From IMG/VR virus record IMGVR_UViG_3300009506_000001, positions 91,246-155,245 of that record: a stretch of 64,000 nucleotides of DNA; one strand, written 5' to 3'. The position numbers were made by a program, and so were the translations under genes. This DNA comes from a virus. Shown piece by piece: positions 54,276 to 62,384 of the stretch (position 1 is the stretch's first letter; each line of letters opens with the position of its first letter). The notes below the pieces were generated by a model, which saw only the letters and a list, made by a program, of their open reading frames with translations, was not told where the DNA came from and searched no databases.

Positions 54276-54354
54276 TGGATCGCCGTACGGGATTCGAACC
54301 CGTGCAGACAGTGGTTTAGAAGCACCCGCTCTGGCCAGGCTGAGCTAACGGCGA
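54276..54354 (-). tRNA. tRNA with CUA anticodon (amber suppressor)
   Basis: Acceptor TCGCCGT/ACGGCGA-T-CCA, D-arm GCTC/GAGC, anticodon loop TT-CTA-AA (C31-C39 mismatch), T-arm ACGGG-TTCGAAT-CCCGT. Confidence 0.8.
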
Positions 54355-56277: not shown

Positions 56278-57187
56278 TTCGGGCTGAGAATACACCGTCA
56301 GTATTCGTACCTTTGAAGGATTATCCCATCACCTGCTACAGCTAGGGTTCCCTTCGTTTCCACTCCGTCAAACAGAGTCTACGAACAAGGTTGCCTTTTT
56401 AAAGTGGTGGCGGTTCCACTGTCCACTGATGCTACTCTGCAGTCTATCTACCGTCAACCTTGCGGGCTGTAAAGGCTTGCGGGCCACCGTGCGACTTTCT
56501 ACAAATGCCTTCCGCCTTGCGAGCTTCGGACACCTTTATTCACCGTAGTGTAAAGAATTAAACCTCTTTAACACCAGTGCGGCCGCAACTTTGCGTTTTC
56601 GTTTAAAGATAGTGGGTTTGAATCCACAGCCTTCTGTTCCTAAAACAGACGCTCTACATTGAGCTATATCAACCAACCAAGATGTGTGCGGCCAGTAGTT
56701 TCGTGAGTTTTTGGCCCACGAGATGCTACACACCTCATGTCTATTTTCCTTGCGGGAAATATGACCGTTCTTCAAGACTGATGGGCAAGCATTTATCCTA
56801 CACTCGTTGTATGAGTGGTCTCAGGACTTACCCGACAACCTTTCAAACTGCGACGACGCCCTTGATTGCAGTCTCGGACTATCCGTCACTACCCTTTACC
56901 TCTTACGACTCGTTAGCTTGGTATGGTTAGGAGGGGGTACCAGCCCTCTCTTGAATCCCCTGTTCCCGCACGTGGCGGCAGGTCAGATTCTGCTCTTTCC
57001 CTAACACACTAACTTCACCGTTAAGACCGCCGCTCTTATCAACGATCTCCTGTCACCAGGGAGGTGAGGCTTGCATAGGAATACCTCCGAAGAGGTGCAG
57101 GTTAAGTTGGATCCCCTGCTTTCCCCTAGTCACCTAGGTTTATGCCCCTATGCGGCAATTCTGTAGTAATACTCTCTACACTTGATT
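56278..57187 (-). ncRNA. large structured ncRNA, GOLLD-like
   Basis: ~900 nt with no credible ORF; own TTGACT-N16-TATAGT promoter; many GCAA/TTCG hairpins; 3' end CGGTGTATTCTCAGCCC; embedded tRNA-like domain; family call is from recollection of GOLLD features. Confidence 0.6.
56604..56673 (-). pseudogene. degenerate tRNA-like element inside the large ncRNA
   Basis: D-arm GCTC/GAGC, anticodon arm TCTGT-TTTAGGA-ACAGA, GTGG-ATTCAAAC-CCAC T-arm; acceptor only partly paired; no CCA. Confidence 0.65.
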
Positions 57188-57505: not shown

Positions 57506-58603
57506 TTAGGACATTGCGAAGAAAGCAACCACGGCGATCAAAAGGATAGCACCAGCTACGTACAGCAGCTTATTGCCACCCCCAGAGTCTCCACCGTTTC
57601 CATCCGCCGTGCCGCCAGTAGAATCGCTTCCAGACTCTGGAACAGCGACAGTGTTTTCTGGACTTGCGGCATCTTGTACAGAGTTTGACTCGTTTGCGTT
57701 TAGGCTCGACGTGTCGCCCTCCGACTGGGAGTCGGATGAAGTCTCTGCAGTACCCATTGGCTGCAAGAAACGATATGTGAACAGAGCGGCACTGCCGTTT
57801 AGTTCTGGACGCTGTGTGAACCCATACTTAACCATCTTGTTGTTGATGTCTTCAACCAGCTTCTTATAACCAACGTTATAAGCGTTTGCCTTTAGAGTAT
57901 CAACTAGCATGTAGGTAAAAGCACCCATGTACTTGCCACCAATGTATGCATCAGCAGAGGTTTGATCAGATTCACAACCAGAAAGCAAAAGACCAGTCTG
58001 ATTAAGATCACGAGCAACTGCACGTGGCTTATTGAAAGTTAATTCACGATCTTCAACAAGCGTCTGAACGTGAGCTGGTGGAGGAAGATAACGACCACCC
58101 TTTGCATGTGGCTTTCTGAGAACCTTCTTGATAAGACGTGTTGCAAGAGGCTGGTATTGGTTAGCTTGATCAAGACCAGAACCACTGTGGCAGCTATCAA
58201 GAGAAACCGTTAAGTTAACACCAGCTGGAACTGTATCAAAGATGCGGTGCAGGTCATCGTCACGGATCATCTTGTCAGCCCAGTTTAGATCAACAGGGCA
58301 AATGATTTCGTCCATGCCGTCTGGCTCATTATCACCACCTGGCTGGTTAGGGAACTGCGAACCGTGTCCACTGTAGTGAAAGTAAAGGACATCACCTGGA
58401 GCAGCATTTGCAACCAGATTTCGAAGGCCTTTAATGATTGCAGCGGTAGTTGCTGCGTTGTCGGTTAGCATTGTGATGTCTGTGAAACCATAATGGTTCT
58501 TTAAGACATCTTTCATTGCCGTGACATCATTTACACACCCACGTAGTGAGTAAGTGGTGCCAGGGTAGTTGATTCCTACTAGAAGTGCACGTTTCTTTGC
58601 CAT
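57506..58603 (-). CDS. metacaspase (peptidase C14) with C-terminal TM anchor
   Basis: ALLVGINY, L.GC.ND, HYSGHG, DSCHSG and SGC...QTSAD motifs; hydrophobic C-terminus. Confidence 0.92.
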   Translation of the reverse strand: MAKKRALLVGINYPGTTYSLRGCVNDVTAMKDVLKNHYGFTDITMLTDNAATTAAIIKGLRNLVANAAPGDVLYFHYSGHGSQFPNQPGGDNEPDGMDEIICPVDLNWADKMIRDDDLHRIFDTVPAGVNLTVSLDSCHSGSGLDQANQYQPLATRLIKKVLRKPHAKGGRYLPPPAHVQTLVEDRELTFNKPRAVARDLNQTGLLLSGCESDQTSADAYIGGKYMGAFTYMLVDTLKANAYNVGYKKLVEDINNKMVKYGFTQRPELNGSAALFTYRFLQPMGTAETSSDSQSEGDTSSLNANESNSVQDAASPENTVAVPESGSDSTGGTADGNGGDSGGGNKLLYVAGAILLIAVVAFFAMS

Positions 58604-58640
58604 ATATTTCCTCCTTGAAATGATATGGTATTTATGAAAA

Positions 58641-58887
58641 TAGTTGGCCTATAGCCAGGGTTCTGTCGAGGACAATCATCCGTCTCTGGATTTCTCCAGG
58701 CTCGTGTGGGCCATACGCCCACCGTAGCTGCCACAACCCGACCTCATAGCGTGGAACTTGGCTCGGTCTGTTTGTGTTGCACGCCCCCTTTCGGTATCAG
58801 CAGTAAAGCGACTTTCGTCTCCTACAGGTTCCTGGCGTGCCCTGAACTTCCTCTACACTTAACGTGCAGCGATTGTCTAGCCAACTA
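58641..58887 (-). ncRNA. rnpB: RNase P RNA, minimal form with reduced specificity domain
   Basis: P1 TAGTTGGC/GCCAACTA; P2 GACAATC/GATTGTC; CR-I GAGGAAGTTCAGGGC; CR-V ACAGAACCCTGGCTA with a compensatory P4; promoter TTGATT-N17-TATAAT. Confidence 0.85.
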
Positions 58888-58923
58888 TAAATACTATTAT
58901 ATGTCAAAATTGGAGAAAAATCA

Positions 58924-59763
58924 ATGCCGTTAATTATGTCAACCCCATTTGGTGCAGAAACAGTTGTGTATCCGCCTTGGGATCTAACAGGGTTTACATT
59001 ATCTTCGTCATTTTCTGTCGCAGGTGACGGTGCCAGTTTTCTACACGGCGTTGATTTCAACAATGATGGTACAAAAGGGTATGTTATTGACCAGAGTACT
59101 CATAAGGTATATCAATATTCACTATCAACTCCATATGACTTTTCTTCGCCATCGGCATCATACGAATCGCAGTATGATTTCACAGCACAGACAAACCTTG
59201 CTGGTGATATGGCGTGGTCCCGCAATGGACTATTCTTGTATGTGTTGAGTCAGTCTGGACAGAGAGTATACCAATACGAGCCTACGATTCCTTTTGATGC
59301 TAGTACGGCTGTTTATAGTGGTACATTTGTAGCCCTTAATCCTTTGAATGCCGGCATAGTAAATCCAAGGGGATTAGCGATTAGTGAAAATGGCGATCGG
59401 TTGTATGTGACAAACAGCGGTAGTGGTACTAATGGTGTTTATGAATTTATTCTTGGAACGAACTATGTGGTTAGCAGTGCTTCTTTTTCCTACTTTATAC
59501 CACCTGAAGGAACGTCTACGTGCCCTGGAATTCGATTCCAGCCAGGTGGTCTTTATATGACGTATATTAGTGATGCACCTGATAATGTTTACTTGTACCA
59601 ATTGACGTCAGCTTATGATCTTTCAACGGCAACGTTTATTCAAACCTTTGCTACAACTGATCCCGGCAACTTCCCTTCAGGCATTGCATGGAATCCAGAT
59701 GGTAGTTCGTTCTGCACCTGTGACTTTGGAACCAATACGGTTTATAGGTATGTTAAGGCTTAA
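58924..59763 (+). CDS. beta-propeller virion-associated protein
   Basis: Repeated F..DG.K.YV...VYQY.L..PYD.S blades; TATAAATA at 58886-58893. Confidence 0.75.
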   Translation: MPLIMSTPFGAETVVYPPWDLTGFTLSSSFSVAGDGASFLHGVDFNNDGTKGYVIDQSTHKVYQYSLSTPYDFSSPSASYESQYDFTAQTNLAGDMAWSRNGLFLYVLSQSGQRVYQYEPTIPFDASTAVYSGTFVALNPLNAGIVNPRGLAISENGDRLYVTNSGSGTNGVYEFILGTNYVVSSASFSYFIPPEGTSTCPGIRFQPGGLYMTYISDAPDNVYLYQLTSAYDLSTATFIQTFATTDPGNFPSGIAWNPDGSSFCTCDFGTNTVYRYVKA

Positions 59764-60725: not shown

Positions 60726-60810
60726 TGGTACCCGAGGAGGGAATCGAACCCCCACGCCTTGCGGCACTAGAACCTAAATCTAGCGTGTCTACCAGTTCCA
60801 CCACTCGGGC
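60726..60810 (-). tRNA. tRNA-Leu(TAG)
   Basis: 85-nt cloverleaf with long variable arm, loop TT-TAG-GT, CCA end. Confidence 0.93.
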
Positions 60811-60813
60811 AAA

Positions 60814-61026
60814 TTAACCGTACTTTCGTTCTTCATTTTTCTTGGCAAGGTATTCGAGAAAGCGATCCAGCTCAAATTCCTTACCTAGCATGGAAGTTGT
60901 TTTCTTCCATTCAACGAGCTCGTAACACTCGTGGCTACAAACAGTTCCGCCGTATACGTGGAATGTGGTTGGGAAAGGCCTACCACATCCGTTGCAAAAA
61001 ACTTCTTGTTCAGAAAATAATGCCAT
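60814..61026 (-). CDS. small Zn-binding protein
   Basis: CNGC...CSHEC. Confidence 0.55.
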   Translation of the reverse strand: MALFSEQEVFCNGCGRPFPTTFHVYGGTVCSHECYELVEWKKTTSMLGKEFELDRFLEYLAKKNEERKYG

Positions 61027-61247
61027 TATGGGTTCAAAAAGTCCATCGCTCTATCGTATGCATCATCGCCTGGATCCGAACCAGAGTCAACAGCATCAGG
61101 AGCACATGGGGCTAACACAACACCCAACCCAGCCCAAAGTGCACGACACTCCTCGAATTCATCTTCTGTCATTCGGATGCCACGGATTTGATCCGCTGCA
61201 GCGTCTAGTAGTTCTTCGAAGGTGAAGTCATTGACCAGATCGACCAT
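61026..61247 (-). CDS. hypothetical protein
   Basis: Coupled ORF. Confidence 0.55.
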   Translation of the reverse strand: MVDLVNDFTFEELLDAAADQIRGIRMTEDEFEECRALWAGLGVVLAPCAPDAVDSGSDPGDDAYDRAMDFLNP

Positions 61248-61389
61248 CCTGAATCTCTTTTATTATCTGTTGGCGTTGCTCCTCAGTATATTTGAGCCAT
61301 TCACCAATCTGTTGTTTTGTACGCTTACAGCCTGTGCAGACTCCGTCTTTCAGCTTACAAACATTGATACAAGGAGTCGAAACTTTCAT
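61228..61389 (-). CDS. DUF1289 family (putative Fe-S) protein
   Basis: STPCINVC......C.GC.RT..QI..W; start moved to MKVST. Confidence 0.8.
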   Translation of the reverse strand: MKVSTPCINVCKLKDGVCTGCKRTKQQIGEWLKYTEEQRQQIIKEIQDGRSGQ

Positions 61390-61507
61390 GTTCTTAGTAG
61401 TTAGGTTTAAAGGGACCTTCAGCTCAGTAATTACGACATTGACGTTTGCAACCATCTCTGACAACCTACCCACTCTCCCAGCAGCGTCGTGGGTCCGCTG
61501 AACTACT

Positions 61508-61583
61508 TGGAGCGGGCGAAGAGGCTCGAACTCTCGACCTGTTGCATGGCAAGCAACTGCTCTACCAACTGAGCTACACCCGC
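61508..61583 (-). tRNA. tRNA-Gly(GCC)
   Basis: 76-nt cloverleaf, loop TT-GCC-AT, TCCA end. Confidence 0.93.
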
Positions 61584-61591
61584 TTGTGTTT

Positions 61592-62143
61592 TTATTTATT
61601 GCGACTCCGTCCGACGACAACCATTCCGAGAATACCGGAACCAAATAACCATCCAGCCGCAGGGACCGGAACAGTAGTCACATTCTCGTACACATCAAAC
61701 GAGTACGAAAGTAGGTTATAGTCCGCGACTCCCGGATAGTTAGACGTAAATGTTGCCTGGACGGGGTTTGACAATATTGCTGCAACCTGTTCTAGTGTTA
61801 GCGAAACGTTGTATACTGTTGGGCTGATGCTTGGGCTGTACGAGGCGGATTCGAACACGCTGCCCACGTCTGAGAATGTTACCACAGCACCATCGTATCC
61901 TTCGTTGGAAGTGGAATCGTCTTTCACTGTGAACGTAAAATCAACGCCGACCAGATCACCGGAAAGAAGCATGTCAAGGGTGACAGCATTGTTACCATTG
62001 ATATACAGTCCAGAACCAAAACTGTCGGAATATGTGGTACAGAGGTTCGCACCCGTAACACCTGAAGGGTCACAGGACGACACAGTCACAGCTGAACTTG
62101 CGGCTGAAAAAAGCATCAGCGCAGCGAAAACGAGTTTCTTCAT
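61592..62143 (-). CDS. secreted protein with VPLPA/PEP-CTERM exosortase signal
   Basis: Signal peptide; C-terminus VPVPAAGWLFGSGILGMVVVGRSRNK. Confidence 0.85.
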   Translation of the reverse strand: MKKLVFAALMLFSAASSAVTVSSCDPSGVTGANLCTTYSDSFGSGLYINGNNAVTLDMLLSGDLVGVDFTFTVKDDSTSNEGYDGAVVTFSDVGSVFESASYSPSISPTVYNVSLTLEQVAAILSNPVQATFTSNYPGVADYNLLSYSFDVYENVTTVPVPAAGWLFGSGILGMVVVGRSRNK

Positions 62144-62178
62144 TAAATCATCTCCTAGGGGTTGCGAATGGTTAAAAT

Positions 62179-62255
62179 TGGTCGGAGTACGAGGATTCGA
62201 ACCTCGGACCCCCTGCTCCCAAAGCAGGTGCTCTACCAAGCTGAGCTACACTCCG
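62179..62255 (-). tRNA. tRNA-Pro(TGG)
   Basis: 77-nt cloverleaf, loop TT-TGG-GA, ACCA end. Confidence 0.93.
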
Positions 62256-62306
62256 ATCTGATGATAGATTACATGAAATGTCGGAAAAGGACAACATATA
62301 TTTACT

Positions 62307-62384
62307 TGGAGTCCCTAGCGAGAGTCGAACTCGCATCTAATCGTTTAGGAAACGATTGCTCTAGTCCATTTAAGCTATAGGGAC
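62307..62384 (-). tRNA. tRNA-Arg(CCT)
   Basis: Cloverleaf, loop TT-CCT-AA, CCA end. Confidence 0.9.

Follow-up and report, generated by a model that had tools for sequence, protein, structure and literature searches.

RNase P RNA is regarded as a hallmark of cells and organelles, and the oldest open question about it is how much RNA the specific cleavage of pre-tRNA needs. In type A RNase P, the catalytic (C) domain harbours the active site, located around P4; the CCA of the substrate base-pairs with the GGU loop of P15/16; the specificity (S) domain docks the T-loop of the tRNA; and the single RNase P protein contacts both the C-domain and the 5′ leader. Type B RNAs contain P5.1, P10.1 and P15.1, and have no P6, P16 or P17.

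The archaeal type T RNAs of the Thermoproteaceae (RF02357) have a 3-bp P2, a shortened P15 and a 2-nt linker between P5 and P15 (PMC3579882), and are devoid of P18 (PMC5839562). The reduced RNAs of Mycoplasma fermentans and of CPR bacteria are without P12–P14, and sometimes without P18, and fall below the Rfam thresholds; many of these reduced RNAs also have no GGU motif or no P16/P17, and in such small-genome bacteria they constitute the only RNase P of the cell (PMC8172020). A bacterial C-domain without its S-domain still cleaves, in the case of E. coli ~500-fold less efficiently in vitro, and such a C-domain requires P15–P17 and is aided by a P6-like contact (PMC5839562).

Here, we analysed a 64,000-nt stretch of DNA, referred to as the window, which is the last 64 kb of a 155-kb IMG/VR virus record estimated to be 44% complete. 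We conclude that the window most likely carries a functional phage gene for an RNase P RNA derived from a bacterial type A RNA; its activity and expression are inferred. The literature searched contains no account of an RNase P RNA encoded by a phage, a negative that is limited to that literature.

Gene, promoter and genomic setting

An Rfam covariance-model search, run on 1 kb in E-value mode, returns a match to RF00010 (RNaseP_bact_a) with 60.9 bits and an E-value of 6e-18 over model positions 1–367, the best match within the Rfam clan, of which lower-scoring matches, such as any to type T, are not displayed. It is the single RF00010 match in the whole 155-kb record (E 2e-19). At curated thresholds, Rfam reports no RNase P in the window and returns a GOLLD RNA, a permuted tmRNA and tRNAs instead; since 60.9 bits is below the RF00010 gathering score of 100 bits, routine annotation overlooks the gene. 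The alignment to RF00010 retains both ends and the core, and skips ~140 model positions of the S-domain. Such a full-length match, with the loss confined to the S-domain, argues for homology to bacterial RNase P RNA.

The RNA spans 249 nt on the minus strand, from the first base of P1 (58888) to its last base (58640). All 76 of the 76 pairs proposed in a structure drawn by hand are standard pairs, and the fold z-score of the RNA is −3.1. A sequence-only reading of this DNA had proposed a phage RNase P RNA with most of its specificity domain gone, a proposal supported by the covariance-model match, by the covariation seen among 23 relatives, P4 and P6 included, and by the location of these relatives in tRNA arrays. 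That reading had placed the RNA at 58641–58923; the RNA does lie within this interval, on the minus strand, but the interval takes in the promoter as well. The near-consensus σ70 promoter that it had recognized is present (TTGATT-17-TATAAT, 10/12). In related loci, a promoter score of at least 10/12 at such a distance is reached at 0.2% of random positions. No RNA sequencing run containing the stretch is listed, and one marine-sediment DNA run contains it.

Genes in the window include those for a T4-type DNA polymerase, a DnaB-like helicase, two topoisomerase II subunits, a ribonucleotide reductase and a tail fibre, and the DNA derives from an uncultured jumbo phage of the T4-like kind. By DNA polymerase (~44% identity), its closest cultured counterparts are jumbo phages that infect Xanthomonas, Stenotrophomonas and Ralstonia. 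No RF00010 match was found in the four nearest of these cultured jumbo phages, indicating that the gene is not essential to the lineage. A BLASTN search of 50,697 phage records with the window RNA found nothing, and megablast of the 12-kb neighbourhood gave tRNA-Pro matches only.

The tRNA genes of the record all lie within its last 10 kb, on the strand of the RNase P RNA. The nearest of them is ~1.8 kb away, the RNA stands outside the array, and the array may continue beyond the window because the contig ends at 64000. The Leu, Gly, Pro and Arg tRNAs are likely substrates. All five tRNA genes in the window (5/5) encode a 3′ CCA, which fits the retained GGU loop of the RNA. The region clusters the RNase P RNA with tRNAs, among them a UAG-reading tRNA at 54276–54354, and with a GOLLD RNA (202 bits; 56281–56736, minus strand), located 1.9 kb downstream and with a tRNA-like match embedded at 56604–56673. 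A permuted (two-piece) tmRNA is also encoded in the window.

Downstream, the ORF of a caspase-like Peptidase_C14 protein starts ~35 nt after the RNA, with a strong AAGGAGG ribosome-binding site from ~20 nt after P1. The one terminator-like site is a weak local hairpin, and its formation would be in competition with P1 and P4. In the absence of a clear terminator, the ORF may be co-transcribed, and the ribozyme may form the 5′ part of an mRNA. The caspase-like protein matches no PHROG, and viral contigs contain no relatives of it, so that synteny is unusable.

Relatives and covariation of the helices

Degenerate patterns joining the two core strands at short spacing were scanned in IMG/VR and JGI metagenomes, yielding ~24 distinct candidates and a few coding false positives. 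The patterns demanded GAGGAA..TC.GGGC and ACAGAACCC, and the conservation of these motifs is thus partly ascertainment. A covariance model, R1, was built from the window sequence alone and the hand-drawn nested structure, with P4 and P6 left out. R1 finds 23 relatives in virus/metagenome contigs, with E-values from 2e-35 to 8e-3; together with two cultured phages, its matches comprise 23 virus/metagenome loci and two phage isolates. The pattern matches L002/L013, L012, L015, L025 and L035 lie in coding DNA, are not matched by R1, and were rejected as family members.

MAFFT alignments were good at both ends and poor in the middle of the RNA, and a model-based alignment was used. The relatives have only ~50% of alignment columns in common. 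In the R1 alignment, 93.2% of cells are standard-paired, compared with 61.0% after shuffling and 31–42% with partners slid; both-side changes occur in 65 of the 76 pairs, and the covariation score is 0.535 versus 0.129 in shuffles. The R1 alignment leans to its own model, and P4 and P6, which were not modelled, are the informative helices: alignment fitting cannot account for their pairing. P4 is 100% paired and contains three covarying pairs (GC/AU; UG/GC/UA; GC/AU/CG), its remaining five pairs being fixed by the scan pattern. P6 is poorly aligned by column and was assessed by a partner-permutation test restricted to Watson-Crick pairs, in which the best-run sum with the own partner is 110, versus 82.7 ± 4.1 with permuted partners, and none of 2000 permutations reaches 110.

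Copies also reside in cultured phages. The copy of Stenotrophomonas phage vB_SmaS-DLP_6 (DLP6; KU682439.2, ~105774–106022; L071:2460-2708) scores 72.4 bits with R1, is unannotated, belongs to the subfamily of the window RNA with the same S-domain stub, and ends 3 nt before a tRNA-Arg. Located by BLAST and not by pattern, it keeps all eight of the eight P4 pairs, while three further pairs are altered on both sides relative to the window RNA. The DLP6 genome paper makes no mention of RNase P. In Microbacterium phage A3Wally (MZ150783.1, ~93852–94072; L072:601-821), and likewise in Zooman and Big4, a family member of 221 nt, again unannotated, is flanked by two tRNA genes; the IMG/VR locus L017 is 99.5% identical to this stretch, and 91% identical to phages Zooman and Big4. 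Because Rfam thresholds miss these genes, they stay unannotated even in complete genomes of cultured phages, and these unannotated copies make the idea directly testable at the bench.

The tRNA setting recurs among the relatives. tRNA genes are present at 18 of 25 related loci, and nearly all of these 18 have several on the strand of the RNA. At L003, L007, L016, L017, L018 and L036, as in DLP6 and A3Wally, the RNA directly adjoins tRNA genes on one or both sides. In several relatives, among L003, L007, L017, L018 and L036, it is within 0–15 nt of tRNA genes on both sides. In such tight arrays, the RNA would be cut from a polycistronic precursor by tRNA-processing enzymes, possibly by RNase P itself. 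The family thus uses two modes of expression, either inside a tRNA array or from an own promoter as in the window.

Matches to RF00010 of ~250 nt also occur in bacterial genomes; these are mostly host rnpB with assembly gaps (NN) or internal deletions and were rejected as members of this family. L047, L058 and L062 contain NN gaps. In a Pseudomonas isolate, a Spirochaetes MAG and a Ca. Gallimonas MAG (L065:1169-1417, L043:4041-4307 and L059:3437-3688, respectively), a ~250-nt match is the only one of the genome, and in the Pseudomonas isolate a mere 3 nt stand in place of ~100 S-domain positions. All three may be real reduced enzymes or assembly errors.

A complete type A catalytic domain and the remnant of the specificity domain

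The window RNA holds a complete type A catalytic domain, comprising P1–P5, the P4 and P6 pseudoknots, P15–P17 with the GGU loop, P18, CR-I, CR-IV, CR-V and J5/15 (Table 1).

Table 1. Window coordinates of the RNase P RNA, its structural elements and its neighbours
Feature	Position	Strand	Details and basis
Miniature type-A-like RNase P RNA gene	58636-58888	minus	253-nt covariance-model match (RF00010 and R1)
-35 hexamer TTGATT	58919-58924	minus	sigma-70-type; 17-nt spacer
-10 hexamer TATAAT	58896-58901	minus	ends 7 nt before first base of P1
P1 5′ strand	58888-58879	minus	partner 58649-58640; 10 bp
P2 5′ strand	58877-58871	minus	partner 58677-58671; 7 bp
P3 hairpin	58853-58869	minus	97.7% paired; 5/6 pairs covary
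CR-I: GAGGAA and P4 5′ strand AGU-U-CAGGG with bulged U	58840-58853	minus	RF00010 alignment, hand fold
P5	58839-58834 with 58785-58780	minus	encloses 58833-58786 (48 nt); 89% paired; 5/6 pairs covary
P6 pseudoknot: GGAAC with GUUCC in P17 loop	58828-58832 with 58753-58757	minus	hand fold, permutation test
Stub module: helix GUAG/CUGC, GA, hairpin GAC-GAAA-GUC, strand GCUUUA	58800-58825	minus	R1 alignment
CC-GAAA-GG hairpin in linker back to P5	58787-58794	minus	window-specific; missing from most relatives
P15-P16-P17	58732-58776	minus	P15 97%, P16 96%, P17 85% paired
Internal-loop strand GGGU of P15-P17	58736-58739	minus	GGGU kept in 19-21/23 sequences
Extra hairpin between P15 and P18 (‘P18a’)	58700-58728	minus	3 bp, 3x3 internal loop, 6 bp
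P18, CUGGA-GAAA-UCCAG	58686-58699	minus	5 bp; 98.6% paired; 5/5 pairs covary
J18/2 (CR-IV), AGACGGAU	58678-58685	minus	outside scan pattern
J2/4 and CR-V: ACAGAA and P4 3′ strand CCCUGGCU	58653-58670	minus	RF00010 alignment, hand fold, R1 alignment
Peptidase_C14 ORF, caspase-like	57506-58603	minus	downstream; not part of RNA
tRNA genes Leu, Gly, Pro, Arg	60726-62384	minus	each encodes 3′ CCA; upstream of RNA

P1, P2 and a P4 pseudoknot with compensatory changes had all been claimed in the sequence-only reading, and all are found. Among the 23 relatives in the R1 alignment, 93% of P1 cells and 96% of P2 cells are paired, with both-side changes in 17 of 17 pairs; P1–P3 together are 93–98% paired, and 22 of their 23 pairs covary. 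P4 is formed by AGU-U-CAGGG and CCCUGGCU, and contains eight pairs and a bulged U. Compared with the canonical AAGUCCGGG/CCCGGCUU, two of its pairs are altered on both sides, and one G-C has become U-G.

The single-stranded elements of the core are likewise retained. CAA of J5/15, which like the GGGU loop and J18/2 was not in the scan pattern, is kept in 20–23 of 23 sequences. J18/2 has the consensus A-G-A-N-R-R-A-U, of which the first A and G and the last A and U are kept in 23/23 relatives. In the internal loop of P15–P17, we take the GGU within the GGGU strand to be the CCA-pairing GGU of type A, which contacts the tRNA 3′ CCA. P18 ends in a GNRA loop, and P8, the usual receptor of this loop, is absent from the window RNA.

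The hairpin ‘P18a’ has no counterpart in the RF00010 consensus, with 41 nt in place of 23 model positions, and its outer helix is 95% paired and covarying. It could be a protein-binding or docking element that is not found in canonical type A RNAs. In L003:5460-5711, L010:809-1068 and L037:1177-1432, all close relatives, the hairpin is kink-turn-like (CC, 3-nt bulge, GA / GA, GG); its internal loop in the window RNA is symmetric, 3x3 (ACG/ACG).

The S-domain is reduced to 48 nt between the two P5 strands, and P7–P9, P13 and P14 are absent. The helix enclosing this remnant had been read as GCACGCC/GGCGUGC with ~50 nt inside; helix and insert are both present, but P5 counts 6 bp, not 7, as the first G of GCACGCC is assigned to P4. 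From 5′ to 3′, the 48 nt consist of a P6 strand, a 4-bp helix, GA, a hairpin, a G...A strand and a linker. The enclosed nucleotides had been described as small hairpins; two GAAA-capped hairpins are indeed there, but the remnant is not an arbitrary set of hairpins and holds a conserved module.

The architecture of this stub (helix, GA, hairpin, strand) recurs in 14 close relatives. Its two helices are 96% and 100% paired, with covariation in 12–13 sequences, and the GA as well as the first G and the last A of the 3′ strand are near-invariant. The 3′ strand is 6 nt long in the window and usually 7 nt in relatives, within a range of 6–8 nt. In the larger phage forms L018, L023, L024 and L027, the place of the stub is held by P10/P11, J11/12 (ACAGAGA), P12 and a GUGAAAC-type strand, while in L032 and L036 the same stub module is placed after P8/P9-like hairpins, which supports reading it as a P10/11–P12 remnant. 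The stub is probably a shrunken P10/11-J11/12-P12-J12/13 element, as inferred from its position and the shared strand length; the putative elbow contact is not readable from sequence.

RNase P-like RNAs of ~260 nt directly adjoin tRNA-Gly(CCC) in four Bacteroidales MAG contigs of 47–223 kb (L042, L051, L053 and L061). These RNAs keep J11/12 and GUGAAAC and have almost no P12. The four contigs may be phage DNA binned into MAGs.

Proposed function and comparison with known RNase P RNAs

We consider it likely that the RNA is the active catalytic subunit of an enzyme that uses host RnpA to mature phage pre-tRNAs, binding them mostly via the acceptor end, a proposal made without activity or transcript data. 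Specifically, the RNA would be transcribed early from its own σ70-type promoter, fold around P4 and bind the host RnpA protein. It would then remove the 5′ leaders from phage pre-tRNAs, and probably would also cut the leader off the tRNA-like end of the two-piece tmRNA. The substrate would be held mainly by the acceptor stem and by pairing of the encoded 3′ CCA with the GGU loop, and far less by the tRNA elbow. The phage could thereby gain extra or host-independent tRNA-maturing capacity during infection. The use of host RnpA is an assumption, as no rnpA (PF00825) was found in the 155-kb record, which is only ~44% complete. Furthermore, since deletion of the S-domain costs ~500-fold in the E. 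coli RNA, the efficiency of the phage RNA in vivo is uncertain. The distance of the gene from the tRNA array of the window and its absence from the four nearest cultured jumbo phages also count against the proposal.

A different use of host RnpA would be its capture, the RNA occupying the host RNase P protein while performing no useful catalysis, and thereby starving host tRNA maturation or redirecting the protein. The lack of a detectable rnpA in the 155-kb record would suit such a decoy, as would the fact that the protein-contacting region (P2–P3, J18/2, J2/4 and P4) is the best-kept part of the RNA and that normal substrates would be recognized less well without the S-domain. A decoy, however, needs no CCA-binding GGU loop, J5/15, bulged U in P4 or P6, all of which are conserved; blocking RNase P would harm a phage whose own tRNAs need it; and the genes are located within phage tRNA arrays. 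We judge capture of RnpA to be very unlikely. The sequence-only reading had offered three roles, namely processing of the phage tRNAs and tmRNA, relaxed specificity, and sequestration of host RnpA. Judged by sequence alone, the processing of tRNAs is preferred to sequestration, in that conservation extends beyond the surface for the protein to the nucleotides for catalysis and substrate binding. Even if the ribozyme is active, its main targets might be the precursor of the two-piece tmRNA, the tRNA-like insert of GOLLD or phage mRNA leaders, its specificity being relaxed without an elbow-reading domain. A permuted tmRNA is indeed encoded in the window, as is a GOLLD RNA that contains a tRNA-like match, and the elbow-measuring S-domain is nearly gone, but the relatives link to tRNA arrays, only one related locus (L006) shows a tmRNA, and the CCA-binding loop and the encoded CCA indicate tRNA-type substrates. 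Such specialized processing appears unlikely as the main role; it overlaps the maturation of phage pre-tRNAs, which remains the best explanation, and does not exclude it.

The score below the Rfam cut-off and the absence of the gene from the closest cultured jumbo phages could also be expected of a decaying relic, namely a captured fragment of host rnpB that has lost its S-domain and is non-functional. This is scarcely tenable in view of helices that all covary across relatives with only ~50% of alignment columns in common, a strong promoter at the right distance and a stub architecture common to 14 sequences; moreover, the random indels breaking P4 and P2 that decay would leave are not seen in relatives. 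Finally, the DNA might not be viral at all and might come from a cell, for instance a reduced-genome bacterium, for which the RNA would be the only, unusually small, RNase P RNA. Some bacterial MAGs do have a ~250-nt RF00010 match as their only one, and CPR bacteria provide known examples of reduced RNase P RNAs (PMC8172020), but a T4-type replication module and a tail fibre are encoded in the window, the source is an IMG/VR virus record, and family members are found in complete genomes of cultured phages. A cellular origin is thus barely conceivable.

A broader proposal is that large phages carry a self-sufficient, naturally minimized RNase P of ~250 nt, with a 26-nt elbow-docking remnant, that processes the tRNA and tmRNA precursors of the phage during the shut-down of host RNA synthesis, assisted by host RnpA or even unaided; we see the chances of this as evenly balanced. 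If true, such a self-sufficient minimal phage RNase P would be a mobile, virus-borne ribozyme and nature's smallest working bacterial RNase P. A conserved virus-encoded RNase P RNA would join tRNAs, tmRNA and synthetases among the translation-related genes of big phages, and would explain how dozens of phage tRNAs are processed. Evolution has repeatedly dropped P7–P9 and P13–P14 and retained P6, P15–P17, P18 and a tiny P10/11–P12-like module, and the family would constitute a natural experiment on the RNA minimum for specific pre-tRNA cleavage.

Among known RNase P RNAs, the phage RNA most closely follows the plan of type A, represented by the E. coli M1 RNA (rnpB; RF00010). It shares with type A the order and pairing of P1–P6, P15–P17 and P18, the P4 pseudoknot with its bulged U, the GAGGAA and ACAGAACCC core strands, CAA of J5/15, J18/2 and the GGU loop. 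Unlike type A RNAs, it is phage-encoded and not cellular, measures ~250 nt versus a consensus of 367 positions, has an S-domain of 48 nt without P7–P9, P13 and P14, and contains an extra hairpin between P15 and P18. Of the criteria for type A, it meets P4 with a bulged U, the P1–P3 frame, P6, P15–P17 with the GGU loop and P18 with a GNRA loop, and fails a full S-domain (P7–P11, P12, P13/P14 and the CR-II/CR-III T-loop site) and the 100-bit gathering threshold. Assignment to type B (RF00011) was rejected, as P6, P16 and P17 are present and no P5.1-like helix is found between P5 and the stub.

The resemblance to type T lies in the retention of the catalytic domain and P6 and the loss of most of the specificity domain, P10 of type T ending in a small loop. 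Type T, however, has an archaeal C-domain and several archaeal proteins, whereas the phage RNA has a 7-bp P2, a 3-nt CAA linker, P18 and a bacterial GGU loop, and membership in type T was rejected. The shared reduction is convergent. The phage RNA is also like the engineered Eco CP RPR (PMC5839562) in being a C-domain without a working S-domain, with P15–P17 and P6 conserved; unlike such laboratory deletions, it is natural, selected and equipped with a conserved stub module. It differs from the RNAs of Mycoplasma fermentans and CPR bacteria in being an accessory copy on a virus that keeps GGU, P16, P17 and P18 and has also lost P7–P9. The window RNA meets the description of, and is a member of, a family of miniature phage RNase P RNAs, characterized by a type A C-domain, an S-domain stub and residence on phage contigs, usually within or close to an array of tRNA genes.
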